Assembly: GCA_030141605.1 (NCBI GenBank)
Contig: JAQGDQ010000272.1
Location: 62,001 to 126,000, forward strand
Length of the DNA: 64,000 bases
Origin: Tubiluchus corallicola
Lineage: Eukaryota; Animalia; Priapulida
Reading direction: 5' to 3'
A program made the translations under genes and the position numbers. This document shows positions 7,360 to 64,000 of the stretch, one piece after another. Below the pieces are notes generated by a model, which made no database searches, was not told the DNA's origin, and worked only from the letters and a program-made list of their open reading frames with translations. Each line of letters starts with the position of its first letter. The first letter of the stretch is position 1.

Positions 7360-7703
7360 ATGTTGGCTTCAATACATCGTCAAACTCGTACTTGCATCAT
7401 CTACTGGATTTTGCTACGGATGTGGTCAGAAAGTCTAGTCCTGTCACTCGACCCAAGAACTTTGAGTGGCGCTGGCGCTTCCTTTCCAAATAAGGTGTAC
7501 CAGACTTGGGTGAAGATTTACCAGTCAGAGAGGGAAAAGTGGTTGTACTTGACCACATATTACTTAGCAGTTGGAAGTGGTACAGGGAAGGATTGGATTA
7601 AGAACAACAGCAGCCTCATTGATTATGCAGGAAGTGACAGCTTGCTCTCAGAGAGTGATTACCAGGAAAATCCGGATTTAGAAATGTTTCCTAGTCTAAT
7701 AGG
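7360..7703 (+). CDS. Copy A coding exon 1: signal peptide plus start of PstS-like domain
   Basis: Acceptor tttcAG at 7316-7317, ATG 7360, hydrophobic CIIYWILL, then TLSGAGASFPNKVYQTW..AVGSGTG..IDYAGSD..MFPSLIG; donor GTAAGT at 7704. Confidence 0.9.
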
Positions 7704-10700
7704 GTAAGTGGAATGATCCTACGGGAAGACTTTGTTTAAATAATAGTCGGTAGGTTGATAAGTGTAGTCTGTAACTTGGGGTGACTTCGCTTTTACATTA
7801 TTTTTGTTGTTGATCTTCACCGTCATTCATTTCCACTTCTGTTGACAAAGCAATCTTTATAGAGTGTTTGATGGTACTGCCCGATTGTTTCAACAACTGT
7901 CATTAAATCACAATATTTTTGCAAATATGGATGCCATATTAAAATGTGGACTTATCACAACATTCTACCAATATTTTTTATCAATATATGTAAACCATGT
8001 GTTTCCAATAGTGGACGGTGCTTGTGGGATGTTGCTCTTGCAGTCACCGTTGTCGCTATCGTCTCGAAGCTACTACTGTCAATGCCAACAAAACCAACGG
8101 TTGTGCCTCGCCTTGTTACATTAATTCACGTCACAGATTCATAAATTATATTGCCACCAATTATTTTGATTTGAAACCAGCCTTACGTTGTTCATCAAAC
8201 CACTTTAATGGTAGATGCTGTCAGAACTCTTATCATTAGTTCATAGGCACTGATAGGTCGGTCATGGTACCCGTTTTTCTGTTGCTCCTCATTACCACCC
8301 TGGACATTTCAAGATGCAGATCAGACAATGTTTCCTCGGACCCCTTTATCTGTGGAATTCTTTATCACAATTCGGTTTCTGAATTAACTACAACTCATTC
8401 ACACTCGAGAAGAGTATTCCCAAGTATTCTGTTTTTTTTGGACGTGCATTCATATTACCAAATTTCTACACAGCCCACTTATCCTGAGTGGTCGCTGGCT
8501 TTGTTTTGGCGACTAGAAGCACAGCAGCAACAACCACAACGACAACAGCAGTAGCAACGATAGCATTAACGACAGTAGGAGCAGCAACACACAAAGATAG
8601 TAAAAGTATGCGACTATAATCCCTACTGCCCAGGGAGCACACAAATTTGGTCACAATCTTGTTAGGATCTTGACAAAAATACGTTTAGAAAATATTGTCA
8701 CTATGGTGCCTTATAGGATATTTTTGTCAAATATAGGATATATACAATAATATTGGTACAACATCACACAAACACGGTTTACACATATTGATAAGAAATA
8801 TTGGTACAATGTTGTGGCGAGTCCATATTTCCGTATAGTATCCATATTTGCAAAAAAATTTCTGACAACATTGGTACAATATTGTCGCGCTGCCTTGGTG
8901 GTTTTATCATTTAAAATAGTTGTTGAAACAGCAATGGCATATAAAGTTAATCGAGCAGTACTATCAACACTTCAGATGCAGAAGCAGAAGTAGCAGCAGT
9001 AGCAGGACGAGCAGCAGCAGAAGCAGTAGCAGTAGAGGGACCACCAGCAGTAGAAGCAGCAGAGAAGCAACAGCAGTAGAGGGACCAGTAACAGCAGCAG
9101 AAATAGCAGCAACAGTAGCAGGACCAGCAGCAGAAGCAGCTACAGTAGCAGGACCAGCAGCAGCAGTAGTAGGACTAGCAACAGCAGAAGCAGCAACAAA
9201 AGCAGAACCAGCAGCAGTAGCAACAGAACAAACAGCACCAGCAGCAACAGCAGCGGCAATGTTGCAGCTAGCTAGAATAGCATTTAACAGCAGCGATGCT
9301 ACAAGGACAGAGGCAGTAGCAAAAGAGCAACAGTGCCAGCAACTGCAGCAGCATATTAGCAACTATACCAATAAAGCAACCTTTATGCTAATCACTCTGT
9401 TATGTTAGCGTATTTGTACTTTGCACCAATAATTATTGCAAAACGTTTGACAGATTTCGCCAAAGTGTATCAGTCACAAAGAATCATTATAACATTAATA
9501 TACGTAAATGACAAGTTTGCATGTAGGCGGATGTCTATAATAAATACTTCAATGTCGACAGGAAAATCTGCACACGTAATTGCTCTTAGAGCTCTCAAAA
9601 TCCTCACAGAATTTTGCTTCAAGTAAGCACAACGATCAAGTGTGCCATCCGTTCTGTCAAAACTGCATGTTTTCCTAATTAAAAATTTAGCACAACTGGC
9701 ACACAGGAGTACCGCAGGGAACGCACTACGCCCTATCTTATTTACTTTACTAGTATTCGCGAAGCAAAATGTAAACGTTAAAATAAAGACCAAGCCTTCT
9801 GTAAAGTCAGGCTTATTTCAATGTTCGCGAAAAATGTTAAAAGAATTTAGTAATAAAAGTGCGATAAGCGCCTCGTGTCATTAGTAAAATCACTTTAAAA
9901 TCGCGATCATTTCACTTTTTGGGCGCTCCAATTTTAAACGCCCGTTCTTCCGCCAATGACAGCATTCATCGGTTGAAGAAAAGCAGTGCACTGCCTGTTT
10001 CCATCAAAAGTACGATGAGTTTTTACAAAAAATTAGAGAGGCAATCCAATTTGCGAATTTTTGCATGAAAATAAGGTAAGCTATAGAAGTTTGAAATAGT
10101 TTAAGCAGGGCGCACTTACGGAAAGCCACGATACGCTTACAAAAAGTCGCGAAATCCATCAGTTTTATCGTCAATTTCTAGAGAATGGGCTGTCAAGATT
10201 TCTATGCAGCGATAGTATAAATCAACTTTGTTTTATAAACAGTTTTGTGCAAATTTCGTGTTATATTTTTCTTAGTTTAAGTGATAACAATAAAATAAAC
10301 CCAGCATGCTAAATGACTTGTCTTTTTCTTCAATTTAAATAAAATGCACTCTGTAAATCGTGTTCCTCTGACAACGACAGGGCCCTTTTATAATATTCTG
10401 AGATAAGACACCAATTCGGCCACGGTGCATCAGCCATCCATTCTCAACAAGGGCAGTGCGGCAAAAACTGTTACAGCCCAGAAACAGTTACCATGACGGT
10501 CACCTATAAATTTATTGACAGGCTCAGCATTGCTTAAGTTCTGTCGTTCAGCACATACCATTGACTACTCGGTTGTTTTCAGTTTATCCAGGTTAACAGC
10601 ATCTCATCCTGGCATATGGGGTCCTCCTTGAATTAATTTCAGATTTCTGGATCGAACTCAAAAGCATGCTGGTTTTCCTAATTCCGAAGTGGCCAACACG

Positions 10701-13700
10701 TTATGTTTTTAATTAATTTGTGAAGCAGGAGTACCAATCTGTAGTGTCTTGTGTCTAACACTGAAAATAGAGTTGTGCTGTTTATCTTTGCTGTGAGACG
10801 CATTTTAAAATAGACTAGAGCATGCAGTATTTCATGCTAAAGAGTAGCGAAATAATAAGACAGTATTTCAAAATCATTTGCCTAAATGTGCGTCAGTGCT
10901 TTTTGAAATGACATCTGTGACTATTAATCTTTTAATTTACAAAGAAGGCGTGAGAATCTGACGTCTTCCAGATTATGGGACACCTTAGTAACCATCTGAT
11001 TCCCAAGAGTACCCCGCATGTCAGAAGGAGATAATCGAAAAGAATGTGTAATTAACCTAACAAGTGAGTGTGTGCTGAATGACAGAAGTTAGGTAACATC
11101 GATTCTGTCAATAAATTGATGAGCGACTGCGCAGGAAAACTGTTTTCTGGGTCTTAAGCTGTTTCTTCTGCCGTGCTAATAAATAAATGTTAAACAAATA
11201 TTTTGTAGCGAATCCGGATTACAGCGCGGATCTGTCTCAGGATGTATAGAGCGGCATACAAGTTATGAAATACTACAGCAGGCGAGAAAAGTAAAAAGAT
11301 CCTGAATACGAATGTAAAATAAACTTTAATGCATAACCAGTAGCTCCATGACGTGTGAACAGACTTCAGACTTTGTATAAAAATTAGCAAGGCTACAGCA
11401 TTCACCTTTACAGACAGTTGATTATAAATCCATTTCTCTGTGGAAGCAGATCAATGATCCACTTGTGAATGCGGTGTAGCGCAATCTATCGAGATTGTCC
11501 CAAAGAAAAACTGTACAGTATTTTTTTAAACAGAGCAGAAATCAGTCTTTGCACATGCAAACGTTGAAGCTCAATTCAATGAATGCGTAGTTTGTGCAGT
11601 TGGTTGTGCAGAGTTGGTGGTTCTTGTGCTTGTGTTTCTTCCATCAGATTTATAGTTCTCCTACTACCCGCTATATGGCAAGTTAGGTATCAGTCTCTCC
11701 ACTTTATTTCTTTGTTCTGTTTTCCTTTAATTTGTTTAAAATCTTTTCATGGTTAGTTTAGGCCATGTAATATTTAAATCACTTTCCAGTTAAATCTTCA
11801 GCGTTATTTAATTCAGTTTCGTTTAATTGTGGTTATGTGGAAATCATTATTAGGCTGCTCCGCCTCCGTACCTGCAGGCCCGAACCACCCCCGGGTGGCG
11901 AGGAGCCACCAGCAGTTCAGTGGTTAGTGTTACGAAGTTTAGTTCAGTTCAGTGTTTATGTTAAATAAGTAAATAAATAAAGCGATGGTAAATAAATGTT
12001 TCTTTGTCTTTTGTCTTGCTGCCTGCAGTTATTTACCTGTTTGGGGGTGGATGGCTGAGACGCTTTATTTAATGTCTTATAATCTGTATTAAATGGCCCC
12101 GCTAGATACCAGATCCTGATTTGCAGAGTGTATCGTATTTAGATGAACGTTCAGATTTTCGTTTGCTAATATTAGAAAAGTAAATAAAATGGGACATAAT
12201 GCATTCCCCTGCAGTACTCCACCATACATGCTGTGCTAAAACTTGATTAGGAGAACCAGCGTGAAACATGTTACCTACTGCCTCATCGGTCGACTCATAA
12301 ATTATGTCCTACTGTAGGTAACATATTCCTTTTAATAATGAATTTTGTTTTCTCAGGGCGGTTGTGGTAGTTTTCAATCTGGGTACTCGTGTTCCAGCTC
12401 TGAACATGACTCGCGAAGGCCTAGTTGGTATTTACAATGGAACAATCAAGTGGTGGAATCATTCTGCATTGCAAGCAGCAAATCCTCAGATAACTCTACC
12501 TTTCAGAAGAATTAAGGTAGATACAACAATGGTAAAATCATGGGAAAAAATTCTGAGTGAGAGATGAAAGGACTCATAACTCGTATAAGTCGATGGAGAA
12601 ATCGAATTCTCAAGAGAAAAACAACTGCCAATACCCACTTAAGCAAATACGTGCCCATATATTCCAACACTGTCATCTGCAACGTATCAATCATAACATG
12701 GTCATGATCATGCAATTCTACCTAATAAAATGTAATATATATAAGTTAATATTTAGATCCAGCAAACCCCATTGTGAAATCCATTTCTAAACATTAATTT
12801 ACAGATCATGTAGTACATTGCCAAATGACAGAAAAACTAAGGTTATGTTACAACAACATAATTCATTCTGTCACTAAAGCCTGTGGGTGGCAATTGGAGA
12901 AATGTTTGCACCAACACATAACAACATGCTGTTTACTATTTAGAAACTGAGTTGTTTGCTTCTCACAATGTGGATTTGTGGACGCCAATATTTAGTTTTT
13001 GTATATTATATTTTTATTAGGTAGAATTGCGTGATCATGACTATGTCACCATTGAAACGTTGCAGATGACTGTGTTGGAATAAAGGATCATGTCCTTGTT
13101 TAAGTCTGTGCTGGTAATTGTTTTTATCTTAATAACTAGTGTAAATTATGTGCCATAGTGTAACGTACAGTTAGCACAGTGTGTCGGTTTTCTAATTTAT
13201 GTTTCATACAGTCATGCACAATTAAGATGGCTATCTGCAAGGCCTTTTCAAAAGTGGCAGGTGTAGCCTAAAGTATGATGGTAGTATGGTAACACTAATC
13301 CACGCATAAAAATTTTCGACTGTGCCCTTTGGAGACGTGTGGAAAACGAGCTAACCTTGTAAAAAAACCCTTACGGATAAAAATTAGCTATAAAAATTAA
13401 ATCTAATGGTAGAAAACATTCTCATCTATATTCTTGTAAAATCATATCAACATTTTACACAGGTGATAGCTCGAAAAGACGTGTCAGGTACCACAGAGAT
13501 ATTCACGAGTGCACTGAGTGCGTTCAGTCCTGAATGGAATGCCACCTATGGTACCTTCAATGACGGCATTGAGGACGATTGGACAATGAAATGGCCAAAT
13601 GACACTATTGAATTTGCTGGACAAAGGAGTATTGGAGTATCAGGGTTGGTCTTATCCATCGAGAACACTGTGGCTTATGTGTCGCACGCTGATGCTATTG

Positions 13701-15383
13701 AGGTATATTATATTCAAATATGTTTATAGTTGAGTAACTTCACATTATTGTATCAAGTGCTTGTTTTTATCTTTTGCTCGATTGTGCATAATAACATCTG
13801 AATACCTGCGACATAAAGATATATATAATGCACCTATCGGTGGACAATAGGTAGCTTGCTGTGTGCGCTGCTACGAGCCAAAGATAAAAGTTTTTATACG
13901 GACCTTAAAACCAGAGATTTCATTGGGAAAAATACGCGTAAGTGTCAGCTATAAACTCTTGTTAAGTGTTTCATTTTACCTTTTTTCTTTTCTTTTTTCA
14001 TAATTTTTTAGGTAATACATGCAGTAAATTATGAATCCTTGTTGTCATGGACGGCGTCACACTGGTGTCAGAAGTGGGATTCGAACCCACGCCAGGAAAC
14101 CAGACTGCGATGTCGTGTGATGCCGTCTATGATAACAAGGACGCGTTGGGTCGAAATGCTAACCAAGGAATTAAACCAAAAATTACTGAATCACGACTGA
14201 CTTAATAACAGCATCCAAGAAAAGAAAACAAAATGAAACCCGAAGCCGAACATAGCCCAGAACGCACTGCCCTCGAGTGTACGAGAACAGGTTACACACT
14301 CGAGAAAATTGGCCTAGAAAACTGAACTCTGATTGGCCCCCGCATTTTACATTCAGTACACTACATTTTCATGAAGCGTGTGGTTTCCGAGACCGTTTAA
14401 TCCTGCGACCCGCCACATTATATATATACATAAGTATTTATATACCATGTTACCTTATAAGGTTATATACATTAATAAGCAAAGGTTACAACAACATTAC
14501 ACAGTTTTCCAAGCAAGAATATCTCGAAATAGAACCGGAACTTACTCCTAGTTGTGTGTCCTGGTGGAAATAAGAAGAAAAAAGTACTAAACACCCCCTC
14601 TGAGACCGCCATGCAATGCTTCACAAACGTTTCTTGTTTCGTCAAAATTTGTGAAAAAAGGCCGGTGATAATGTTCCCATTTTGAGACCCTATACTCGCC
14701 TTTCTTCACAAAGTTTCGTGGAAATCCGTTAGATAGTTTTTGCAAAATAAGCTTACTGCCATAACAGACAAAAACAGCCAAATAAACAGACAAACAAACT
14801 GTGCCGAAGCATAATTTCTTTGGTAACAGCCAAATAAACAGACAAACAAACTGTGCTGAAGCATAATTTCTTTGGTAGAGGTAAAAATAACTAAAATAAT
14901 TATCCCCACTGTAACCCTAATCCTAAAAACATATTTTATTAAGCGTGACATTGTTTCCTATGCCTTTTCACCTACTTTTCGTTTGTGCTATTTTTTCCTG
15001 TGCCATTTTTACCTACGTTTCCATTTGTGTCATTTTTACCTACTTTTCCATTTGTAGCATTTTTCCTGTGTCATTTTTACCTACACTCAACTCCCAATAT
15101 TTCTAGTATATTATATAGAAATTATAAAATTTCACGATACGATTATGTTAACTCCAACGTATGAACACACTAAAGGTTATTACTAATTTGTTATTGTCAG
15201 TATAATAAGAATAACATTCATTTTACTTCCTTTTTGTACAAATGTCTTTGCTATTTCTGATATAATGAATCAAATTTACTTCAAATGTAACCTCCTAATT
15301 ACTGATTCTAATACGTGTGGGATGAACCGAGCCAAGGTTAATAGATTTGGCACAATTAGCTATATATAATCGGCCGAATACTG

Positions 15384-15443
<60 letters not shown>

Positions 15444-18400
15444 TGTCACATCTCTGTAAGAAATCTGAGATTCCTAATGTGGTGTTTGGAATCCAAAAAT
15501 CAAATGGTATAATATCTCTGTATAATTTTATAACGACAGGAGCATTATTTGATTTAATGTAACATGTTTGAGTGTGTTGAAAAATATATCAATAATTTAG
15601 GTATTTTTTATGCTAAGAAACTGAACTTACATGTTTATATATATCATTATTCGTGTTTAACTTGTATACGTTAGGCAGTTAATTAAGTTAAACAGACACT
15701 CGGTATCAACAACACTAGTTAATTACCTACTCATACATCCAAAATAATAACAGCTAATGCAAGGATTTTACAGACATAATCTAATTGGTGATAATGCAAG
15801 GATTTTATACAATGTTTACAAGTAGGCACTAAAAGGTGGCTAAGTAGCTTATGATTATTTTCAATTCTTCACTATTTAGACCTACGTCATATATGCCTTT
15901 CATCCCATATTAACACTCCTTGATCACATTAGCGTTAATATCATATTTTCTTGCGTTAAATTACCAATATTACGCTTAATAAAAACATGTAAGTTAAGTT
16001 TCTTAGAATAAAAAATATCTAAACTGTTGATGTTTTTCAACATGTTACATTAAATCAAATATTGCTCCTGGCGTTATACAATTATACAGAGATATTATAC
16101 CGTTTGATTTCTGGATTCCAAAGACCATATTATGAATCTCAGTCTTCTTACAGAGATGTGGCAATTTAGAGGACAGATTTGCAATAACAGGCAACAAATT
16201 TCCATAGGTTCGTCATGGCAACCCGAACATTCTATAATACCTGTATTCCAGGCTACACATAAACGATTTTTAATCCAAACGATTTTTAATAATATTTTTA
16301 ATATAATGTTTTTAATACATTTTAATACCCAACCGCCAAGCCTGACAATCATAATACGATGAGCAATACGTTTGCATTGTTTTTTGTGTAAGCAGTATGT
16401 TTATTGAGCCAAAGCTCGTTATAACACAATTAGTTTAACCAATGAATTCTCCGTTTTTTCTCTCGCAACTTGTTGCGCGACAAATTAAGAGAAGTTGCTA
16501 AGCCATTAATACGTACGGCTTAACTTACAGAGAGAAGTTGCGCAACAAGTTGCGAGAGAAGTCTCTATAAGTCTGAACGCGCCATCAGAGAGAAGTTGCG
16601 CAACATGTTGCGAGAAAAGTCTCTATATGTCTGAACGCGCCATCAGAGAGAAGTTGCGCAACAAGTTGCGAGAGAAGTCTCTACATCTGAACGCGCCATT
16701 AAAAACGCCTACATCTTCATAAGGATTACTCATAACTATATTACCGACATGAGTTACTTGATTAACCCACGTCAGAAGCATGTTACATTAACAGATGGTC
16801 GGGTTAATCAGCAACTGATATATGTCTTTTTGTTTACAAAATCTAATACACAGCTCGTAAAAGGTTAATTCCATATTCATTACAGTATGTGTCACAAATA
16901 TTTAGCATTTGCTGCAGTGCTGGAGCTAGCACGCTCAAATTATCAGCATAAGAAAATGTCCCATAGAAGCGGCTGCCAATGTGACACCCATAACCAGGTT
17001 GTTGCAAACGAATCAACAGTCCATCTACATATTACGCTAAACAACGTGGGTGGCAAAACTCCACCTTGTTGAACGCCTAAATTCTGCTTATAATTCCGCT
17101 TATAATTTCAAAAGCTGCTTGTTGTTATTGCGTTATGCACTACAACGAATAAACATCATCTAAAGTAGTAGTTTCCAAAGACTATGTAGATTGTAGTATG
17201 TTTCCACAATAATGAACATCAGTGGATGGTCCAAAGAGCACTTGTGATATTGGAGTTGTTGTTATCGTCGTCATTGTCGTCATTGTCGCTATTGTTGTCA
17301 CATTCAGCAGCAGTGGCGATGGCACAGTGTGGGTGGTAAAATGTGGTTGGTGTGGTGAATGTAGTGTAGCGTGGTGGGTGCATCATGTTGGGGTGATGTG
17401 GAGTGGCATAGTGTGGGTGTGGTGTGGTGCAGATGATGTGGTGCGGCTTGTCGTTGTGAGTTTATGTGCAAAATTCTTTTGTGGGGTTTGGCTAGTTCAT
17501 ATTAATCTCAAGAACACCAGCTGATTTTAAGATGTGTTATTTCACAATATTTGTGGTATTTTATTTCGTCAGGTACCTATAATTTTTATAGTACTGTACT
17601 GAAACCCGATTTAGAACATTAGAGAGAACCGGGCCGAATCCGTCGTGTGAATTAACTGCGACAACTTATGTATTAACTGTGAAAAAGGTGGGTCGAGTTC
17701 CAATACATTACAAAAGAGCCAAAGCTACTCCAAGTCTTATTCGTTTTATTTTGCATGAGATAAAAACGCGGCATTCATCTAATTTTGTAACTTTACGTCA
17801 AGGATTGGCACATTTGTATGTTTGTGAGTTTCTTTGCGCAGCGCGGCACCTCAAAAAGCAGTGAAAGAATTTCGAGGAGGGGCGTGTCTATATGAAGAAA
17901 AGTAAATTATTTGTTAATATTGATGTGTGAAGAATTTTGTTTGTCGTTATGATAAAATACCGCAGCAATACAATAAAGGACAGTATGAAGGACGACGTCT
18001 TCGATTTAAATAATACTCTAATTAATAATTGACAAAAGCAACGAAAACGCCAAAAATATTAATAGGAGAGTAAAGGTAACAAACTACTAGAACAAAATGT
18101 AATAGAATTTTTCTCTTCAGATTGTATTAGAATGTGGTCTTCAAGTGCCTTCAACAAAAATTGGGCAAAAATCGGTTTTGCTACTTTTGAGATATACGCA
18201 TAAATCCAAGATGGCGCCTACTTGGGCCAAACATCATGTATATCTCCTAACCCATTGCGCCTAGATGGAAAATATGTATTATTGACTGATAAGAAAGTGG
18301 AACAGAGAATTCCAAAAATGCAGTCATTTTTCAACTGTGAGGTCGGAATGATGTCACAATAGTATTATGACGTAATTAAGAACATCTCTGCAGATTTTGG

Positions 18401-21400
18401 GTTCTCGTAGTTTCAAAAGTGTTATACATCCAAATGCACGCACGTTTTTAAAGCAGAAGCTTATTCTTTTGTGACATGGTACAAAAGCGAGTAAGAGCAC
18501 GAAACAATATTGTATTGTTATAATATACTACAAGTATTGCTGAATCAACAGCGACTCCATCACTAGTTCCAGTTTAATTTTGGCATAAACTTTGTTCGGC
18601 CATGTTTGGATTTTATTATTTAATTACAACAACCATTTATTAGAATTAATAGACCTAACAGTTAACTTTGAGGCACCTGATTTGGGCACGCAGGTTATTT
18701 AGTCACGTAGGTAATGTGAACACGTGCATAAGCTTTTAAAGGAAAACCGGACCTAATCTTAAATTATATCAGTCAAACTCAATCAAATTACTTCAATATC
18801 ACTATCAATTCAATCAACGTATAGCTCAAAATAATCTACCCTTTAAAATATTGAAAGGAAACATACCATTTCAAGAATGACTTAAGTGAAAGATTTATTA
18901 TCACAAAAAAGTAATTTCACGTTCGTGCGGCTTGTTCTTTTTGCTGTTACACACATTTCGATATTCTATTGTTAGACGGGCGCAATATACTTTTTTAACT
19001 ATACGCTGTGCATTTTGACTTTCTTTTTGAACCGGTAGTATATGTTACGGCCGGTTCAAAAAAACAGTCAAAATGCACAAAGCATAGTTAAAAAAGTATG
19101 TATTGTTGGCCATCTTGTCCCTTCAAGTGAGCGCTTTTGGAAGTAATTCTCGAAAATTTCAATTTGTAATTTTTGAATATTTGTTAATTGTAAAATAGTG
19201 TATGAACCTAAATCACGGATTTTCTTCATTTAACTTATCATTAATGGACCATATTGCATTATTAATTAAACTACTCTAAGAATGTTCATAGTGATTCATG
19301 GCAACAATTGACTAAATGTTTTCCGAATTACCATTGCAATGTATTTTTTTATTTTAGAATTTTTACAATATCATGTTTTGAAGATCTGAAAATGAAAACT
19401 AGAGTCTTTCGAAGTGTCATTGTTTACACATGCCATTGTAATTATTTCACAAATACCATTGTGCGATTTTTTTGTGATAATTGATTGATTTTTGGCGAAG
19501 AATTTCATGATAATCTTGTATCCAAATTGCCTATGTGTCCAAAATGTCTTTTGTCCATGTGACTTTTATGTCCAAAATACCATGTGCCCAAATGATCTGC
19601 GTAACCAACTTTCTTGTGTTCAAACTACCTACTTGTGTCCTGTGTTCAAATTTCTTATGTGCGTAAGTCATCTAGGTATCCAAATTATCTATGGATTATG
19701 TGATAATTGTGATAATATAGGACCAGTACAGACAGTGCCCAAGTTGCCTATGTGTTCAGTTTACCTGCGTCCAAACGTTTTATGTCGAGTTGTCTGCACA
19801 CGGGGGCTGGTGAATTTCCAGGCTACTCATTTCACTCGAAAAAGTATCCCAAAGCTTTCAGGTCACTGTCCCAAATATATCCCTCAAGACAGCAGATGTC
19901 CGAGACACACAGTGCTTCAGATTCTCGAGCGCTTCAATAATGTTCTAATATAATAAACCGTACTGTCCTGTCGTTTGTTGTCTTTGTACCGCTAGCAAAA
20001 GATTTTGTACTAGCCTAAGATCACCACCTTATTACAGAGAAAGAAAATCAATTTCGATCAAAAAAGTAATGGAATGGTGATCACTAATCGAAGATCATGA
20101 AAAAAACTACAGTAAACAGAATGACGTCTGGAGAACCAGTTGCATCTTCAAAAGAAAAAAGAAATAATTATCTCAGTTTTGCAGAAAGTTTGGTAGAGGC
20201 TCTCGCATTTAAAGTTTGCCCTTCTAGTTCTCCACTATTTTTGTGTGACCTATGCATTTTTTGTTCAATGGCTACAACTGGCCGGAGTCACGACCGGACC
20301 AAGACTGACCACGACTAACCCAACTTTTGACAGACTGAATCGAGTCCGCAAACCTTATGGAAATATTAGACCCAAATGAGACCAGACTACATTCTGTCTA
20401 CAAAGGCAAATCATGCACATTACAGATACTGTAATTTCAATGCAATGCCACTAAGGATGACGCTAACTGTGTTGACCAACATTCGGTAACAGAGCTAGCA
20501 TTGCAGTATTGTAAATACACTAATCTGTTCATGCTTATGTAAACGCTCTGCGTAGTTTGCTTGCCTATTTGCATCTGTGTCTTGCGAATGCCCGCAGCTT
20601 TGTAAAGAGCAACCTCCGCTGAAAGCTCTCCTGGCGAGTGCGTATATTTCTTTAACATTATGGGTTACTGACTTTAGCATCGGAAGTATGCTGGAAGCTG
20701 TTGCTCCAGCCAATAAACTGTGCATTAAGGTGTGTTTTAAATTACTGCGCCTACAGGCCAATCAACATCAACTTGGAAGTAGTGCCCGTCTCCATGGTGA
20801 CATGACAGCAGAGGACGTTACTATGGTGACAGGTCAGCAGAGGCTCGGTGCTAGGTGTTGCTAAGGATAGATATTTTTAGATGACATAAGTTAACCAAGT
20901 TTAGCCTCAGAATTGAGGCATATAAGGACCAACATTATCAGCTGGAAAGTAGCCAGTTTATAGACACCAGTGCTTTTCTACACATTCGGCACCAGGCATA
21001 TTCATACTCTCTTGGACTTACTGTGGATGTTCTGCAGTGTACTTTATATTCAAAATACCATACGATCACATTTGCTAAACAAGACTTTGTGTTTTATACT
21101 TCGATACACGACAATAATTATAGTGCATATCCTAAGAAACGTCTTCAATCTATAACCAGTACTGCATTACAAAACCATATTATTATTACTGGTACTGAAC
21201 AAAGACTTCATTCATTATTACTGATACCGAGCTACAAAACTCCATCATTATTTTTGTTCTACTAATTTTCATGCGGTGAAAAACTTATTGCTGTCATGAT
21301 TGCTTTGTAGTATGGTTGCTTATGTCCGATTTATGTCCTTATGTGGGACTTTTGTGCTAAAGTTATTTTCTTGGTTAAAAGTTAATGATTGTGACCTACG

Positions 21401-24400
21401 GTCCAAAAAATTGGGTGCTATTTTTTTCAAGCCTAATGGGGGCACCATTTTTAATTGGGTTCAGATCAGAGAAATGCCTCACTATTCACTACAAACACCT
21501 GAAAACTCACGGAAAAGGAGCAACCCATTTTAGGGTATTTCACTGAACCGGAAGTAGGGCATGCCCAAATATTTCACTGTACAAAATCTGAAAATTACTG
21601 GAATGTGGTATTTTAGAATGCTGAATACGGATATGAACTTTTCTGGGGCGGAGGGTTCTACTTGCACAGGCCGACAACTTTATAGGGACCAAAAATGGGG
21701 CACATCGTAGTATTTAGCACAAAATCCTAAGTATTGCAAGAAAGGGGGTTTTTGCGACACACTGAATGGAAATCTACTTTTGGTTTCACTGAACGACAGC
21801 ATCTAGTTGCTCTATCGTCTGTCTGACTCCGCTAGAATTGCTTATAGTTTCAAAGCCAGTTCCATTATTCACTCTCTTGTTATTTGCATACTCAGCTGTT
21901 TGACATAATGTGCTTGATGCTAAAGTAGCTGCCTAACCCATGTGTCACCATGGCCCGACTACAGTAAAACAGACATTGCATGGAGAAGTTGAGATAATAA
22001 ATTTACTCATCTTTACAGTAGACCGATTATATTACTAACGTTATTGTTTAATTTGCTGTAATAGTACGCTTGAAGTGCATACAATAAATTGCAGAATACA
22101 GTCATATGGAATTAAGATTTTTCGTCCAGTTATTTATTTATTTATTCTCCGCAAATTTAACTATTATAATAACTCAAAAGCCTAGCAAGCTAAGGTCACT
22201 AAGCTCACAGGGTTGGTAGCCCTTGTCGGCGGATGAACAACAGTATGGTGACCACTGACCACCGGTCAAAGGTGGAAAGGCAGTGGGCGTTGGTCAGTTT
22301 TCCTTTAGGTCGCATCTCTTCCTAGGGCCTTCGGTTTTTTCCATTTTTTACAAGTATTTGGGTACTGTAGGGTAGATGTGCACCTGGGGTCTTAAAAAGT
22401 TGACAAGCTTCAAACGCCCGAGAGATGGGCCAAAATACAAAATTTGGGGTCCCCCATTTGGTGACCTTTTATATGCTGAGGGCTAGGGACAAAAAGCTTA
22501 CAGGGCACACTCTCCGGGCAAAGTTATTTGTGTGTACATGTGACACAAATTATCGGGTTAAAGGTCACGGAACGAGGGAGTCTTCATTTATTTTTCTTCA
22601 TGATTCATCTACTCCCGTAGTTTTTGAGCTAGGGCCACAATATTTGGTATGTTGCTAGGTGGGGTCGCACTCTAGGTGGGGGGCTACAAAATATGGGACA
22701 TGCACGTATACGGAAATTTTCCGCTAGGGCAAAAACCGAAAAATAGGGGTCGCAAACAGAAATGTATTGAGCAATGATACCTTGTAGCACATCAAATGAA
22801 AGGTTTCGATGAGGCGAATCAAATGGTGTAGGTTACAATGAGAATCGTTAACATGTGGCCGAATTGGGGGCAAAATAGGGGTCGAGAAGACATTTGCCTT
22901 TCTAGTTAAACGTAGCTGGCTTGTAGTACGTCGAATGAAAAGTCTCAATGAGACAAACTAAATGGTAGTAATTACCCAGAGATTAGTTAATCTCTAACTG
23001 CAGCAAAAACTGGAAAAAGGGTGTCAAGAAAAAAATGCATCAAGTGTCGAGCAGTAGTACCATGTTACATATCATATGAAAGGTCTCGATGAGACGAATC
23101 GAATGACATATGATACAATGAGAGTGGTTAACTTGTGAACCCTCTAGAAACAAGGAGTTCAGGAGACAAATATCTTCTAGTGTCAACCGAAACTAACTTG
23201 TATCAAATGAAAAATCACAATGAGGCAAACTAAATGATATAAGTTATGCCGAGATTGGCTGACCTTTGACACCGGCGGGTGACGGGCTGAACAGTAAAAT
23301 GCTGAAGTTTCATTGTGAAATGCACTTTCCATGTATTCAAGTAAGGTGAATTCAATAAAAAATAAGCACTTTAAAAAGGCTGCCATCTCTTCATTTTTAA
23401 GGCTCAATTTTATAACTATTGTTTGCAAAATCTTCAGTTTCTGATCACGTCAGAAACATTGTCAGCTAGTTTATCACTTGAAATTGAAACTGCTCACGCA
23501 AACGTTGACGTAAATTTATTGCTAATTTTTCAGAGTGGCCTTCGAATAGCTCCAATTGAATCACGAACTGGCGAAATGGTCTTTCCGACACCAGAGTCAG
23601 TACGTCAAGCGGCGGTAGATTATAAGGACGCGTTCACGTCGCATTTTACAGCCCAGATTGTCGATCCGCCCAGTAGCAATGCTTACCCCATCAGCGGTAA
23701 AATGTGTAACATAAAAGTGGTTTAAATACTAGACGTTTAACAGCATTTTTAAAATGTCAACGTAACTAATTTGAGTGATACATTTTGATTTTGTAGGGAG
23801 CCGTTGCAATAAGAAGTATCTTAAATATGTAGTTGATTTGTAATTAGGTAACACACCTAGTAACATGACTAACATGCTATACGACATTTTTAACTCAGCA
23901 TAAGAAAGACAGAGAGACGGAGAGAAGAAGAGAAAAAGAAAAAGTAGAAGAGGGACAGAAAGAAAAAAGAGGATCGGGAGTGGATAAACCGAGAACAAAG
24001 AGAAAAGAGTGAAGAATATTAGGAGATAAAACAGAAAGGGGATAGAAAGAAAGTAAACATAATATAAGAACAGAAGGAGGGAGTCTAAGGGAAAGAGAGA
24101 GAAAGACAGCATGCACAAGATTACAAGACTAAAAGTACGTGTACTTGAACTTGAATCAGAAAAATCGAAAACTCATCTTTAATAACCAAATAATTTAGTT
24201 ACTAACCGCAATCAGGTTATAGAAAAACTGTTAGATTGGATACAATTATAGTCCAACTGCAACCTATATTTTATTCTTCCAGGTTACACTTACATCATTG
24301 TCCACATGTCCACCATGCAAAACTGTGACTCGGCAAAAGAGCTGGTCAGGTACTGTGATTGGTTCCTGCACGACGAAAGTGCCAGTAGAACTGCAGATCA

Positions 24401-27400
24401 GTTTGGGCTCATATCAGTTGGACCACAGATCAGCAGCATCATCGTTTCAAAAGTTCTTCGACATCTGACATGTCACGGGATGAACATATGGGCAGAGGTG
24501 GAAAAGGAAAAGCAGTGGGAAAGAAAAGCCGAGCAAAAATGGCGGCTTCCAGTATATATAGTGGCACCATTTGTTAGCTTGGTTCTGATTGGTCTAATCA
24601 CGTATTCGATGTACAGTTACGTGAAGACAAATAGAGCCTTGATGCGAAATGAATGGAAGATAAATGCAGATGAAATCGAAATTAGTAATCGGACAAAGTC
24701 AGCTTATTCCGGAAGCATAAAGTCCATTTTTAGCCGAGGAAAACTATCGGGACGTGATAGCTTGGCTAACTATTGCAACAACGATTTTACAGTTGCCAAT
24801 TACCTAGAAAACAGAGTTTTTCTAAGAGCCGTTAAATCAAAGACCGTGCCACATTTTTCAAGAGAAACAAAAAGGTTACTTCTGTGGATGAAAGACAGTG
24901 TACGCCATCCAAATGTACTGATATTTTACGGAGTGGCAGAAATTAAAGGTGAATGGAAATTTGTGTCCGATTTCTGTTCAAAGGGCAGTTTGGTCGATGT
25001 TCTTCAGGCTGACAAGTACTCCTTGGACAATTCATTTAAATTTGCTTTGGCGATCAATGTTGCTAATGGGTTGTTATACTTGCACAAATTGGGGATAATT
25101 CATGGTCATCTCTGTTCTGCTGTTTGTTTTGTTGACACACAATGGAACGTGAAAATCACAGATTGGGAATTCAACAAACTGAACAGTTATCAAAAGAGGA
25201 AGAAGAAATGCCAAGTGTTTCCAGAAAACCCATCTGCTGCTACCGAGTCATTCACAAATGAAATAAACAGGGAAAAGTTTTTCTTTTCACCCCAAAAGCT
25301 GAAAAGTGACCCTGACAAATATGCACCTACCAAAGTGGATGATATTTACAGTTACAGTATTATAACATATGAGATATTTACAAGGCAAGATGCGTATGAA
25401 GATATCCTAGAAACTATGACAGAACAAGAAGTTTTATATTCCATTGCAAAGAAAAAACTTCGTCCTCGAAAAACCAAGGATGTACCGGATACAGTATTTT
25501 CTGTGTTGGAAATGTCTTGGAAGGATGAGCCATCAGAACGCCCTAATGCCTCCCAATTGCACAAGAAAATGAAACTTGCCAATCCTTCTAAAAGAAGCTT
25601 AATGGATAGCATGATGCGGGCTGTAGAGTCTTACACACTGGAGCTAGAAGATCGAGTTAATGAAAGAACAGCTGAATTAGCGCAGCTCACAAGCAGCATG
25701 GAACAACTTCTAGGACGCATGCTTCCTCCAGACATAGCAGCTAAGTTAGCCAGAAATGAAGAAGTGCAGCCGGAATATTTTGAATGTGCTACTGTGTTTT
25801 TCTCGGACATTGTTGGCTTTACATCATTATCTGCAGCTTCAACACCATTGGAGGTTGTTAACCTGTTAAACGTATTATATACATTTTTTGATTCAGTGAT
25901 AGAAAACCATGATGTGTACAAAGTAGAAACAATAGGCGATGCTTACATGGTCATATCGGGTGCCCCAAAAAGAAATGGCAAGTCCCACATTGTTCACGTG
26001 GCAAATATGGCATTAGACATTGTTAATGGTATACAGGATTTCTGCATCCCTCATTTGCCTGATGAAAGACTTTTAATTAGGTGCGGCATTGCCACTGGAG
26101 CTGTTATGGCAGGTGTTGTTGGGCTGAAGATGCCTAGATATTGCATATTCGGAGATACGGTTAACACAGCCTCGCGAATGGAATCAACTTCCTCACCACA
26201 GAAAATTCAGGTAAATTATTTTTCTCTTTTCAATCTTTATCGTTTACTAAAATCCTTTATCTCGTTATAAGATTCTTGCTATATAAGTGCAAACCACACG
26301 CCACCATGACATTTTGTTTGCCGAAAAAGAGATTCCTGTTTGTGTTCATAAACTGGCATTGCAAATGCTGTGTGTGATTAACTATTTGATGGCACATTCG
26401 CTGTTTCAAATAACTTCTCCGGCATTTGAAATTTTATAAAGAAGATATGAAATGAACGTGCACTTAAAATATTTCATTATTTAAGAACAGAAAGTCGACA
26501 ATTTGGTCGTGATGCTGTGATTTATACCACTTCCCACAGTCTTGCTCTATGCATACCTAGATGCAAATAGTTGCTTATAAGTTAATTGTGTTCCCTCGGG
26601 CTTTTTATCGTGGAATTTTCTACTAGGAAAGTGTTGCAATCGGCTCACGAATGCCAACGTATGATTCTAGTTATGGCAACGAATTATACGTGCTGCCATT
26701 TCCATTTTTGATTCGCAATGCTTTTTTTTACAGCTCGTATTTCTTGACAATTCTTGATGACCTCGTATTTAGTCTGATCAATGTAGTGAATTCAAATCTT
26801 TGATAAATTTTATGTTAGATTTATTGGTTATATTATGACAGTTTTTCAACATACTGTAAATTGATTTGGAGAAGTCAGTGAATGACCAGGTGTTGAGTAA
26901 TGATAACAAAGAAAACAGATAGTCTGTACCTTCCTGGTTAAAAGCCATGTTACAGTATTCTATCATTATGACTTGTCTATCAGGGAGAACAAATTTGCCA
27001 AAAGAGTTAAAAAGCTGCAAAGCACTTGAACAGAAATTAACGAAATAACATTTTAAACTTGGGCGTTAACACTACGCGAAATGCAGATTATTATTGTTGT
27101 TACACTTTTGCAGATAACTGATTTTGCCAATGACATGCTGATAATGCAAGATGGACGCTATTTTACAGAATACAGGGGAGAGGTGGATGTGAAGGTAAAC
27201 TTGTGGATGTAACATCTTTCACTCCATGTTGTACCACATAAAAACATTTTGCTCTCTTTTCAATAACGACCATGCAACGACCACCTTTTCTCTTTTCTTC
27301 TTTCTTCTGTTTCTTCAATTTTCAGTGTGTTTTTTTTTGTTCAAGCCTCCCATGAAGAGAGTAAATAAACCGTTGTGTCTAGGTTTAAGTTAGATTAGAA

Positions 27401-27737
27401 GGCGCTGAGAGGTGTAGAAACAAGGAATAGTTTATGGACATTAGTTAAATCTATTAATAAACGCATTAAGCTTGTAATAAATAGTTCCATTGTTTTACAT
27501 TACTGTTTACAAAGTCTGTCATCTCGAGGTTCACCTGAAGGGACCTTTCACTTGTAAAGTTCACTGCACAAAGCTTAGCATGCCTGTACATTATTGTTAG
27601 AAAGTTACTCTTGAAACTTTGTCTTATAGAACAAATTAAGGTCAAATTGTGTATTTTATATAGCAATTTCTTTGTAGGGAAAAGGGAAGATGAAGACGTA
27701 CTGGTTGGTATGTAAACTACTCGCCCCCGTGGTCTAG
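7360..27737 (+). CDS. Receptor guanylyl cyclase with PstS-like phosphate-binding ectodomain, copy A (spliced, 991 aa)
   Basis: Exons 7360-7703, 12357-12516, 13463-13702, 23534-23696, 24283-26210, 27114-27194, 27678-27737. All introns are GT..AG with compatible phases (2,0,0,1,0,0), giving a 2976-nt open frame. Motifs: TLSGAGASFP, GSGTG, DYAGSD, RKDVSGTT, AYPISG (PstS-like); TM LPVYIVAPFVSLVLIGLITYSMYSYV; kinase-like HPNV..HGHL; FSDIVGFT, YKVETIGDAYM, PRYCIFGDTVNTASRMES, KGKGKMKTYWL (guanylyl cyclase). Confidence 0.92.
8975..9360. repeat. Degenerate (AGC/AGT)n trinucleotide low-complexity tract in copy A intron 1
   Basis: Runs of agcagc/agtagc; a shorter counterpart lies at about 38150-38310 in copy B. 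Confidence 0.85.
12357..12516 (+). CDS. Copy A coding exon 2 (PstS-like)
   Basis: tctcAG acceptor; AVVVVFNLG..LVGIYNGTIKWWNHSALQAANPQITLPFRRIK matches the PstS IYLGKIKKWDD..LNPGLKLP pattern; donor at 12517. Confidence 0.9.
12605..13135. mobile_element. Foldback/MITE-like element with about 130-bp imperfect terminal inverted repeats, copy A intron 2
   Basis: TTCCAACACTGTCATCTGCAACGT..GTCATGATCATGCAATTCTACCTAATAAAA (about 12660-12730) is the reverse complement of 13012-13081; absent from copy B intron 2. Confidence 0.7.
13463..13702 (+). CDS. Copy A coding exon 3 (PstS-like, RxDxSGT motif)
   Basis: cacAG acceptor; VIARKDVSGTTEIFTSALSAFSPEW..VAYVSHADAIE; donor at 13703. Confidence 0.9.
14063..14110 (-). 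pseudogene. Reverse-transcribed 3' half of a tRNA-Leu including CCA (extended primer-binding-site-like sequence)
   Basis: Minus strand TCGCAGTCTGGTTTCCTGGCGTGGGTTCGAATCCCACTTCTGACACCA: anticodon-stem 3' strand, long variable arm, T arm, acceptor strand and CCA; no 5' half. Confidence 0.8.
14111..14417 (-). mobile_element. Possible LTR fragment abutting the tRNA copy
   Basis: Minus strand begins TGTGGCG and ends CACGACA, contains CCAAT; its end resembles 14036-14062; no target-site duplication seen. Confidence 0.35.
14700..15085 (-). mobile_element. Non-autonomous DNA-transposon-like repeat (other copies about 30490-30910 and 31803-32920)
   Basis: Shared AAAGTTTCGTGGAAATC..AGTTTTTGC, ACAAAC runs, TAACCCTAA, and reiterated TGTGCCATTTTT subterminal motifs. 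Confidence 0.7.
15388..15439. repeat. (AT)n microsatellite
   Basis: Perfect dinucleotide run. Confidence 0.95.
16528..16699. repeat. Three tandem copies of a 56-58 bp unit
   Basis: CAGAGAGAAGTTGCGCAACAAGTTGCGAGAGAAGTCTCTA..TCTGAACGCGCCAT at 16528, 16586, 16644; inverted partial copy at about 16458-16482. Confidence 0.9.
18983..19105. repeat. Long imperfect palindrome (arms about 53 bp, 15-nt loop)
   Basis: ATACTTTTTTAACTAT..TGTGCATTTTGACT..TTTTTGAACCGG pairs with CCGGTTCAAAAAA..AGTCAAAATGCACA..ATAGTTAAAAAAGTAT. Confidence 0.85.
22740..23265. repeat. Diverged tandem array of about 140-bp units with a conserved 36-bp core
   Basis: Core RTCRWATGAAARRT..RATGAGRCRAAY..AATG at 22791, 22930, 23071, 23202. 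Confidence 0.75.
23534..23696 (+). CDS. Copy A coding exon 4 (PstS-like)
   Basis: tttcAG acceptor; SGLRIAPIESRTGEMVFPTPESVRQAA..NAYPIS; donor at 23697. Confidence 0.88.
24283..26210 (+). CDS. Copy A coding exon 5: end of PstS-like domain, TM, kinase-homology domain, coiled coil, most of the guanylyl cyclase
   Basis: Contained in ORF 24306..26270; ttccAG acceptor at 24281-24282, donor GTAAAT at 26211; canonical GC motifs. Confidence 0.95.
27114..27194 (+). CDS. Copy A coding exon 6 (cyclase C-terminal part)
   Basis: ttgcAG acceptor; ITDFANDMLIMQDGRYFTEYRGEVDVK; donor at 27195. Confidence 0.88.
27678..27737 (+). CDS. Copy A terminal coding exon
   Basis: tgtAG acceptor; GKGKMKTYWLVCKLLAPVV-stop. 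The TTG|GTATGT inside it could be an alternative donor. Confidence 0.82.
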   Translation, partial: GKGKMKTYWLVCKLLAPVV

Positions 27738-37545: not shown

Positions 37546-37895
37546 ATGTTGGCATCAGCACATCATCAAAGTCGTATCTGCATCATCTACTGGATTTTGT
37601 TATATTTACGGATGTGGTCAGAAAGTCGAGCCCTGTCACTCGAACCACGAACGTTGAGCGGTGCTGGTGCTTCCTATCCAAATAATGTATACCAGGCTTG
37701 GGTGAAGATTTACCAGTCAGAGAGGGAAAAGTGGTTGTACTTGACTTCATATTACTTAGCAGTTGGAAGTGGTACAGGGAAGGATTGGATTAAGAACGGC
37801 AGCAGCCTTATTGATTATGCAGGAAGTGACAGCTTGCTCTCAGAGAGTGATTACCACGAGAATCCGGATTTACAGATGTTTCCTAGCCTAATTGG
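37546..37895 (+). CDS. Copy B coding exon 1
   Basis: Acceptor at 37505-37506; MLASAHHQSRICIIYWILLYL..TLSGAGASYP..GSGTG..DYAGSD; donor GTAAGT at 37896. Confidence 0.9.
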
Positions 37896-40800
37896 GTAAG
37901 TGAAATGATCCTTGGTGGAAATTCTGTTTAAACTATAGGTCGGAAAAGTGACTTAGGGTGATTTAGTCATTACAGTAACAGCAGCAAAGGTAGCCATAAC
38001 GACAGCAGGAGCAACATTACATAATGACAGTAGAAGTACTCTAAACCTACAACACCTGTGTGGTTTCATCATTTAACGACAGTTGCAGAAACAGGAATGA
38101 CATAATTATAAAGTTAATTGAGTAGTACTATCACCACACTATATAAAGATTAGCTTCGTCAGTAGTAGTGGAAATATAACCACCATCGGCTGTTAAATAG
38201 TTGTTAACTGTAACAGCAGCAGTAGCAGCAATATTCAACAGCAGCAATGTTAGAGGGACTGAGGCGGTAACAGAAAAAGCATCAGTAGCAAGTGCAGCAG
38301 CATATTAGCAACTACACTAATCAAGTAACCTTCAGCTAATCACACTATTACGTTAGCAAATTTGTACTTTGCACCAATAATTATTGCAACACATTTGACA
38401 GATTTCGCCAAAGTGTAGGAATCACAGAGAATCATTATAACAGTGACATGTGTAAATGACAAGTCTGCACATAGGCGGATGTCATAAGTCATAACTCATA
38501 AGTCATTTATTTCACATTACACATTTGCAATAGTTTCATGTACAATATATAGTGAAAGGGCCTACAATGAACATAATACAAATAAGCTTTTTATTGTTTC
38601 TGCGCAAGAAAAGCCTCACACACTGTTCACCCTTATACAAATATAAATGTGTTGCGGGCAATCAAAAAGCAGGGCTTGTTAGATTGTCCCACACAGTGAA
38701 AGAGAAAAAAGTAATGGAAATAATCTGAAAATTTAAAGTGAATCGTGTGATAAAAAACATTTAGTACTTAAAATGGAATGATGTAATGAATGAAGCTCAT
38801 ATATGTTTATGATAAATACTTCAGTGTTGACAGGAAAATCTGTGCACGTAGTTGCTCTTAGAGCTCTCAGAACTCTCAAAGAATTTTGCTTCTAATAAGC
38901 ACAACGATTAAATGTGCCATCCATTCTCTCAGAAGTGCAGGTTTTCCTCATTAAAAATTTAGCACTTACCCTGGGGTACCGCAGGCGAACGCACCGCGCC
39001 TCATCTTATTTACTTTTCTAACATAGACATGGCAACATGGCAAAATGTAGAAATTCATCTAAATAAAATACACTCTGCAAATCGTGTTTCCATATCAATG
39101 GAAGGGTCCACTTTAACACTAGTAATCTTCTGAGATAAAACACTAACCAGCCTAAGGTGTGTCAGCCATCCACCCCCAATGGGGGCACTGCAGCAAAAAT
39201 AATTAAGACCCAGAAGCAGTCATGTTGACGGTCGGCCATTGACCATTGAATTGTTTTTAATTTATCCAGGGTAACAGCGTATTTTTTTCAATTACCGCAT
39301 CTCATTCTGGCGTATGGGGTCCATCTTGAATTGATTTCAGAGTTCCGTACAAAACTTAAAAAGCACGCTGGTTTTTCTATTTGCTCACTTTCAACAACTC
39401 AATGCTTTTGTTAATCGCGAAATTGGTGTACCTGTGTGTAGTGTCTAACTGAAAAAATTAAAGTTGTGCTGTTCAGTTAATTAATTTTTGCTGTGAGGGA
39501 TAAAATTGTGAGACATTTTAAAATAGACTAGAAATAGATTTTAGAATAGATATAATATGTAGTATTTTACACTAAAAACTTTGAAATAATGAAGAAAATA
39601 TGTATTTCAAAATCATTTACCAAAATAGGTTTCAGTGCTTTTTCTGAAAGGACTTCTGTGACTATTAATCACTTAATTTACATGAACATATGAGAATCTG
39701 AGGATTTCCAGATTTTGTGACACCTTAGTAATAATCAGGTTTAATTCGAGGAGGACCCCATGTTATGCACAGTCTACTATAGACGAATGTTTAGCTAGTA
39801 TTATGAATAGGTACTGTAAGTACTGCGGGATGGGAAAGCCACACACCTGTCCTTCAACAAGTGCATAATTTGGAAACCAGGTTGTCGTCCTAGTTTTATT
39901 TCGACGGTTTTAGTCGGCACGTCTATAGCTATGAAGTAAAGACGTTTGCTCTGTACGTGTTACCTGCGGACTATGTAATGTGTTGCAGTTTGGCATTTAG
40001 CATTTTATATAGCTGTGATTACAGTTAAAGGACAGTAACGTTTTCGAGCAGTCTAGATACGTTGTGATACATTTTGTGCACTATCGAAATTTACAGCAAA
40101 ATGGATACTTGGGACAATTTGCTTAAAAGCCGTTATGGAGTTACTACTGTTCATGTGGAAGGTTGGACTGAATATCACCGCATAAATTTACCTGACGCCA
40201 GCCTCTGAGGAAGTTAAACCATTCTCGATGTCACCTCACCTACCTCATAGACGGGACAGTGCAGACTTCGTTTCCAGTGACGTCACCAATGATTATGTGG
40301 CATGCCAAGATATTAATGAACAGTGAACCATCTCAGCGTGGACAGGTTTTTCGGTGCACCTCCCAGGGAAAGGGTAATTAGTGAGTACCTAGTGTATTAG
40401 AATCTAATTTGTTTATCTTTAGTTGGGTTTTGCCTCGTATTTATCTGATTGCTTTTGAAAATTATCTTTTTGATCATATCATCACAAATTTGTTCATTAA
40501 ATTTTGATTGTTCTTTATACACAAAATATGTATCTTGGAGTGCGTTTCTTTGTGAACGTTTAAAAAGTATTTGAATAGTGAAAATATTATGAATAGTTCA
40601 CACTTTGTTAGCTAAACACAATAGCAGCAACTCAAGACCGACACTTAAGATCCCACTCGTGATTCGAACCCATATCTTTTGTCTCAAGGTACGCCCCGTA
40701 GAGGTACCTATGAGAAACTGATTCAGTTTCTAAACTACTTACATCTGTGTACAACTACCTCACCGCTCGGCTAGGAGTACTAGTTTGGGAATTGTTGAAG

Positions 40801-63885: not shown

Positions 63886-64000
63886 GTAGGTTTTCTACTC
63901 TCTGATAAAAATCTTTTATCCATTTAGGCACTGTGCAGGTCTCACCACCGACATTGTAAACAGTCAGAAACATTAAGCTCTTGATAATTAATTTGCAAAT

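Follow-up and report, generated by a model that had tools for sequence, protein, structure and literature searches.

The presence of a prokaryote-type domain within intron-rich animal DNA raises the question as to what kind of gene carries it, what it does there and where it came from. We addressed this for a 64,000-nucleotide (nt) stretch of the priapulid Tubiluchus corallicola (contig JAQGDQ010000272.1, positions 62,001 to 126,000, here called the window and numbered from its first letter), in which an earlier reading made from the letters alone (the sequence-only reading) had described a domesticated PstS-like domain. Our analysis identifies 7360..24545 as the PstS-like ectodomain of a predicted 991-residue receptor guanylyl cyclase that is tandemly duplicated. 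The first gene, copy A, has seven exons on the + strand (7360-27737), the PstS-like region being its 5' part, and a tandem paralogue, copy B, lies at 37546..50530 (+). Splicing was derived from open frames together with homologue alignment, and on this basis both copies splice to open frames of 991 residues each with a protein identity of 93%. The twelve introns of the two copies are all GT-AG and fall at the same codons in each; the four described earlier as cutting the domain were confirmed in copy A and recur in copy B, and the sizes given for them (0.35-9.8 kb) are right, although that range pools the two copies.

Coding exon 1 of copy A (7360..7703, + as are all features of both genes) encodes a putative signal peptide, in which the N-terminus is basic and a run of 9 residues is hydrophobic (mean hydropathy 2.3 and 2.9), and the start of the PstS-like domain with ligand residues S41, F42, S73 and D93 and N-glycosylation sequons at N82/N83. 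Intron 1 (7704..12356, phase 2, 4653 nt), the position of which is common to the animal family, leads to exon 2 (12357..12516; PF12849, E 0.005; sequons N131, N142 and N149), and intron 2 (12517..13462, phase 0, 946 nt) to exon 3 (13463..13702), which carries ligands R172, D174, S176, G177 and T178 and sequons N194 and N214. The repeat-rich intron 3 (13703..23533, phase 0, 9831 nt), exon 4 (23534..23696) and intron 4 (23697..24282, phase 1, 586 nt) precede the 1928-nt exon 5 (24283..26210), which holds the ectodomain end with C317, C327 and C366, the membrane helix, the kinase-homology domain and most of the cyclase. Exon 6 (27114..27194) follows, and exon 7 (27678..27737) carries the frame to its stop, although its final ten codons may instead be subject to further splicing. 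The copy B exons are at 37546-37895, 41401-41560, 41914-42153, 46181-46343, 46920-48841, 49908-49988 and 50471-50530, with introns 1-4 of 3505, 353, 4027 and 576 nt. The ratio of nonsynonymous to synonymous divergence (dN/dS) between the copies is 0.22 overall, 0.17 in the ectodomain and 0.11 in the cyclase, and both are under purifying selection.

Downstream of the ectodomain the protein has the make-up of a receptor guanylyl cyclase. A single membrane helix is placed at approximately 24549-24617 by the one hydrophobic peak above 2.0 (windows starting at residues 390-393), and the kinase-homology domain in exon 5 (PF07714, E 9e-29) has HGHL in place of the canonical kinase motif HRD, that is, without the catalytic Asp. 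The guanylyl cyclase domain, mostly in exon 5, is of class III (PF00211, E 1.5e-52) and in both copies retains all six catalytic and specificity positions D-E-D-C-N-R, which we take to comprise the GTP-selecting Glu and Cys and the catalytic Asp, Asp, Asn and Arg. From helix to cyclase the best PDB match is NPR1 (E 1e-93). None of the exons matched PF01094, the ANF-receptor ectodomain, and the homologues carry PF12849. In a cyclase tree with one sponge receptor cyclase and one non-animal sequence as references, 16 PstS-type sequences group together with a support of 91. All six cyclase positions are intact in just 11/43 complete homologues. The cyclase is degenerate in 32/43 complete family members, and 29/32 of these keep the R-S-G-T/S phosphate site of the second lobe.

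The most informative feature of the ectodomain, overlooked in the sequence-only reading, is its set of phosphate-binding residues. The E. coli PstS ligands listed in the available part of PMC6549937 (T10, F11, S38, D56, R135, S139, G140 and T141) map in that order to S41, F42, S73, D93, R172, S176, G177 and T178, and Asp137 of E. coli PstS maps to D174; the copy A codons are at 7480 (S41), 7576 (S73), 7636 (D93) and 13472 (R172). All the phosphate ligands are kept in both copies, T10 as Ser and, in copy B, F11 as Tyr. The domain alignment retained 242 of 385 sequences (those with 190 or more of the 257 core columns filled, after removal of near-duplicates and thinning of loci) in three groups: animal (95, a FastTree clade including the 2 window sequences and 18 animals by name), other eukaryote (71) and prokaryote (76, including 10 phage contigs), the latter two labels being assigned by name where given and otherwise by domain architecture. 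Whole-protein identity of the homologues to copy A is only about 26-55%, whereas the ligands are strongly conserved: among 93 animal-clade homologues R135 is kept in 91/93, G140 in 90/92, S139 in 82/93 and T141 as Thr or Ser in 87/93, and those covering the first-lobe sites keep D56 (17/18), S38 (17/18) and T10 as Ser (12/12). Asp56 is the residue by which PstS selects inorganic phosphate. The match of exon 1 to E. coli PstS has an E of 1e-4. When exons 2-5 are combined with four homologues in a profile, E. coli PstS 1ixh is matched with E 1e-38 and DING proteins with E 1e-5, and an AlphaFold model of the Haliotis asinina ectodomain (predicted local distance difference test score 96.6) has E. 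coli PstS as its best match, at a template modelling (TM) score of 0.78-0.81.

A survey of architecture and intron positions, as the sequence-only reading had proposed, recovered the order of PstS-like domain, membrane helix, kinase-homology domain and cyclase in five protostome phyla (priapulid, molluscs, annelids, nemertean and tardigrade), with examples in Priapulus caudatus, Dimorphilus, Owenia, Helobdella, four scallops, Pinctada, Mercenaria, Haliotis, Batillaria, Tubulanus and Paramacrobiotus and truncated forms in Aplysia and Nucella. Databases label family members 'retinal guanylyl cyclase-like' or 'atrial natriuretic peptide receptor-like', and the searched literature, which did not extend to subscription journals, yielded no description of a PstS-type animal receptor cyclase. 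The family is apparently an undescribed variant of receptor guanylyl cyclase, of which the window supplies a member predicted to be catalytically intact. Many of the homologues are single open reading frames (ORFs) called on genomic contigs, and an ORF that reads through the phase-2 intron 1, which lies within the Gly codon of G|AVV, shows Arg or Ser there. This is the case in 24 of the 28 sequences flagged for unrelated upstream sequence (Arg in 19, Ser in 5), and intron 1 is therefore old and common to the family; the other four are two with a homologous upstream part, one misanchored sequence and one spliced Priapulus model. Three sequences labelled non-animal have Arg or Ser at this point too, one of which (P0126) groups with animals in the 72-sequence tree discussed below. 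Introns 2, 3 and 4 are absent in 24/24 genomic homologues, with reading unbroken across those positions; as the sample is biased by length and the filter favours intron-poor genes, this means absence in many lineages and does not imply that these introns are unique to the window gene. The simplest reading is that introns 2-4 were gained in the window's lineage.

With regard to the origin of the domain, an IQ-TREE phylogeny of 72 sequences (LG+C20, rooted on proteobacterial and phage sequences) unites 45/45 eukaryote-type PstS domains in one clade (support 98/95) which, under that rooting, is nested in a ladder of Chloroflexota PstS. Animal sequences join two non-animal-type receptors (96/96), and the proteins of the window and of Priapulus are sisters (99/98). 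FastTree placed some Chloroflexota sequences among eukaryotes with low support, a placement that the mixture-model tree does not repeat. Approximately unbiased (AU) tests on 34 sequences, both hypotheses of which were framed after the 72-sequence trees had been seen, rejected animals grouping with prokaryotes with other eukaryotes on the opposite side (p 0.0043) as well as animals grouping with the closest prokaryote sequence (p 0.000125). In a scan of 44 proteins, the non-animal PstS fusions include class C G-protein-coupled receptors (GPCRs), cyclases, a kinase-cyclase, a phosphodiesterase and multi-repeat receptors, and PstS-fused receptors occur in Chromosphaera, Entosiphon, Calcarisporiella and Gorgonomyces. 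The outer domain is thus likely to be an old eukaryotic possession rather than an animal uptake from bacteria, and a single origin of the eukaryote-type domains from a Chloroflexota-type donor is suggested tentatively. This agrees with one option of the sequence-only reading, an ancient retained domain, which is supported by the tree and the AU tests; its other option, horizontal acquisition, is upheld only for a very early event, one that preceded the early eukaryote lineages or took place among them, and not for an uptake into animals. That reading had named an ectodomain tree showing vertical descent across eukaryotes as evidence against transfer, and our tree fits this for transfer into animals but leaves vertical descent itself unresolved. 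A word-based search with exon 1 gave a single match, a bacterial-type PstS (47% identical), and the ESM Atlas gave a match at 0.75 and PF12849 clusters at 0.87-0.90, two of them mostly Chlorophyta, which are leads only.

Two side observations emerged from the non-animal sequences. Class C-type GPCRs that bear a PstS domain at their tip, from fungi (such as P0144 of Calcarisporiella and P0182 of Gorgonomyces) and other sources, are candidate phosphate-sensing GPCRs. P0058 (807 residues), which falls outside the animal clade, has a pair of PstS domains and a membrane helix and contains the beginning of a kinase-homology domain of the canonical receptor-cyclase type; it may represent another fusion of this sort, either a second or an older one.

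The sequence-only reading had described the domain as adapted to the secretory pathway, citing six sequons in both copies and three cysteines near the membrane (QNCD, RYCD and LTCH), all of which are present. The six sequons common to both copies (copy A positions N82, N131, N142, N149, N194 and N214) contribute to counts above those of shuffled sequences (7 vs 2.6 in copy A, P 0.009; 6 vs 2.55 in copy B, P 0.027), and family ectodomains carry 1.55 sequons per 100 residues compared with 0.95 in other eukaryote domains, 0.53 in prokaryote PstS and 0.43 in the family's cytoplasmic parts. Retention between the copies was rejected as evidence, the chance of six sequons surviving in both being about 0.40 at 318/343 identical columns. 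Conservation in animals is 0/18 for N82, 30/75 for N131, 72/84 for N142, 46/86 for N149, 24/93 for N194 and 45/93 for N214, and sequons occupy these positions in at most 5/76 prokaryotes, such that only N142, which also occurs in 20/70 non-animal sequences, is strongly conserved. The cysteines C317 (24324), C327 (24354) and C366 (24471) precede the membrane helix by 75, 65 and 26 residues. C317 is found in 92/93 and C366 in 84/85 animal-clade sequences and they likely form a disulfide; C327, the RYCD cysteine, was rejected as a conserved residue (1/89). Where both sites are covered the C317/C366 pair occurs in 45/59 other eukaryote and 17/42 prokaryote sequences (11 Chloroflexota loci by name and 6 further ones), and because it is already present in these prokaryotes it is not a eukaryotic adaptation. 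What remains of the secretory claim is the family-wide sequon enrichment, which agrees with the ectodomain being extracellular, and the domestication reading holds only in part; the introns, sequons and cysteines are the ordinary outcome of long eukaryotic residence and are not the news.

With all phosphate ligands and all six cyclase positions intact, the protein is therefore a testable candidate for a phosphate receptor signalling via cyclic GMP (cGMP). We put at about even the prospect that it is a single-pass receptor guanylyl cyclase in which phosphate-driven closure of the ectodomain regulates cGMP synthesis, and such a receptor would likely let marine invertebrates sense phosphate directly. 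Extracellular inorganic phosphate would be bound by the PstS-type outer domain and would close its two lobes, as in bacterial PstS; closure would re-orient the receptor dimer, aided by the likely C317-C366 disulfide near the membrane, and the movement would reach the cyclase by way of the kinase-homology domain, as happens in NPR1. Historically, a PstS of the type now found in Chloroflexota would have entered eukaryotes early and been put to use as a receptor ectodomain on many signalling modules. In an animal receptor cyclase it would have taken the place of the previous ectodomain by the time of the protostome ancestor or earlier, with the additional sequons and introns 2-4 as later arrivals. 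More tentatively, these may be the first dedicated animal cell-surface phosphate receptors, protostome-wide, with cGMP output and with active and cyclase-dead partners, forming the animal branch of eukaryote-wide PstS-tipped receptors (cyclases, kinases and class C GPCRs) that derive from one ancient Chloroflexota-type pstS uptake. Receptor cyclases of C. elegans are direct sensors of pH, CO2 and temperature according to the available part of PMC5225109, which does not mention phosphate. Phosphate sensing in animals is incompletely understood, the candidates named in the available part of PMC9338892 being transporters, FGFR1c and the calcium-sensing receptor, and a receptor that unites a complete phosphate site of the bacterial type with an intact cyclase can be tested in a single cell assay.

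The main rival to phosphate-driven closure is that phosphate is a permanently bound cofactor, or that what the site holds is the phosphate moiety of some larger ligand (a phosphorylated metabolite or phosphonate), the signal being another molecule or a partner receptor. We regard this as possible but rather doubtful: the site is indeed retained in 29/32 cyclase-dead paralogues, chloride-dependent hormone binding reported for NPR1 (in the title of a reference of PMC5225109) offers an anion precedent, and animal members have an insert before the conserved second-lobe Trp, absent in bacterial P0001, that may provide a further binding surface, however Asp56 is kept in 17/18 and the entire two-lobe fold is kept. 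Phosphate-driven closure of an old eukaryotic domain, which we prefer, also has several points to contend with. The structure model is that of the Haliotis asinina homologue, not of the window's protein. Bacterial PstS binds phosphate with micromolar affinity or below, and a site of PstS-like affinity would be saturated in body fluids, so that signalling would be confined to the body surface or would require a reduced affinity; moreover, the 29/32 cyclase-degenerate members that retain the site indicate that it is not kept solely for cGMP output. As to origin, the prokaryote sequences were picked by likeness to one bacterial match (best 80 of 608), which is the reason that the Chloroflexota-type donor is tentative, most non-animal sequences were classed without an organism name, the bootstrap of the 72-sequence tree is still unsettled (0.971) and long branches may be pulling the eukaryote sequences together.

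A transfer of bacterial pstS into an animal ancestor, domesticated through introns, sequons and cysteines, would fit the bacterial-type best match of exon 1, the nesting of eukaryote domains within bacterial PstS and the enrichment of sequons. It is nevertheless very improbable and largely refuted, as the animal domains have receptor ectodomains of non-animal type as their nearest relatives, the AU tests reject animals with prokaryotes, PstS-fused receptors occur in the four non-animal genera named above, and both the cysteine pair (in Chloroflexota and further prokaryote sequences) and the N142 sequon are found outside animals. Less remote, if still unlikely, is that animals obtained the domain by transfer from another eukaryote or a giant virus instead of inheriting it from the opisthokont ancestor: the sister group of the animal clade consists of two receptors, one with a protist-type cyclase, and not of the ichthyosporean and fungal domains, and sponges, cnidarians and deuterostomes are all missing among the 18 named animal proteins. 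However, the backbone of the eukaryote clade is poorly resolved, hidden paralogy is likely given the tandem repeats and many fusions, and with most matches lacking an organism name absence from those groups is not established; this alternative bears on the origin alone and does not conflict with the proposed function. That the locus is an assembly artefact, contamination or a dead gene, its two copies being collapsed alleles, is scarcely credible. No contig spans the whole locus, the introns and exon 5 of copy A are covered by separate pieces with heavily stacked repeat contigs at the introns, and splicing was not seen at the locus in contigs from the sequencing runs, none of the matching runs listed being RNA, but the spliced frames are open in both copies with a dN/dS of 0.22, the runs of two studies contain exon 5 DNA (shares 0.73 and 0.65), contigs link exons to introns in copy B (e.g. 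X4 41341-42399 and X3 40855-41822), the copies differ by kilobases of intron content and the same architecture is found in independent animal genomes. The earlier conclusion that this is not bacterial contamination is thus supported.

The introns had also been described as loaded with animal transposons. Non-coding elements resembling miniature inverted-repeat transposable elements, with terminal inverted repeats of 89-128 nt, lie at 7912-8860, 12607-13135 (in intron 2) and 15441-16166 (in intron 3), and these together with the stacked repeats bear the description out in part; Pfam matched 0/61 copy A intron ORFs (68 listed, 7 exon-overlapping or low-complexity ones left out), and a reverse-transcriptase remnant was identified in intron 3 of copy B only, a broken one of long interspersed nuclear element type (43271..45517, -; RVT_1, E 2.8e-12; outer limits from neighbouring ORFs). 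The adjoining STT3 gene is real and intron-rich, its 5' part (53980..63902, +) having at least 7 exons with 7 exon ORFs matching PF02516, but it starts near 54 kb and so adjoins copy B, with copy A some 26 kb away; its earlier assignment to STT3B is putative.

Further observations concern the gene itself. Synonymous divergence between the copies is uneven (0.19 in the ectodomain, 0.03 in the membrane region, 0.07 in the kinase-homology domain and 0.11 in the cyclase), and gene conversion over 24549-25900 may be its source. Both copies have an upstream ORF of 4-5 codons, MKHPS (7332-7347) and MKLT (37519-37533), coordinates approximate, in frame with the main ATG, stopping 12 nt short of it and lying directly 3' of a conserved polypyrimidine-AG that resembles a splice acceptor of the 5' untranslated region. 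Receptor cyclases known so far are intron-rich from membrane helix through kinase-homology domain to cyclase; here a single exon (24283-26210) holds the helix, the kinase-homology domain and the greater part of the cyclase, while in many homologues almost the entire gene is one exon, and a retroposed origin of the PstS-cyclase fusion is possible.

Compared with known systems, the protein is closest in its inner part to receptor guanylyl cyclases (NPR1/GC-A, 9bcv; GC-C, 8fx4), with which it aligns without a break from the single membrane helix over the kinase-homology domain and linker to the cyclase, and from which it differs in having this region mostly in one 1.9-kb exon. The NPR1 ectodomain is of the ANF-receptor type, whereas here it is of the PstS type (PF12849). 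The available part of PMC1435932 gives the same domain order for receptor cyclases as in the window protein and mentions neither PstS nor phosphate binding. With bacterial PstS (E. coli, 1ixh) it has in common the fold (TM about 0.8, from the homologue's model) and all phosphate ligands, but it is fused to a membrane helix and cyclase, split by introns and rich in sequons, with Ser for Thr10, and no transporter genes were present among the window ORFs examined, unlike the free or lipid-anchored PstS of PstCAB. DING proteins (HPBP; 2q9t, 2v3q) belong to the same phosphate-binding superfamily and begin N-terminally with DINGGG. The domain here begins RTLSGAGASF and is membrane-anchored, and it matches DING far more weakly than PstS in profile (E 1e-5 vs 1e-38) and fold (TM 0.67 vs 0.80), on which grounds membership of the DING group was rejected, in line with the sequence-only reading. 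Finally, the receptor kinase-cyclase-kinase type of Acanthamoeba and giant viruses is likewise a single-pass receptor with an outer sensing domain, which the available part of PMC4053784 leaves unnamed, and a cyclase placed there between two kinases; P0130 combines two PstS domains, a kinase and a cyclase, and the window protein differs from the Acanthamoeba and giant-virus type in having one pseudokinase before an animal-type guanylyl cyclase.

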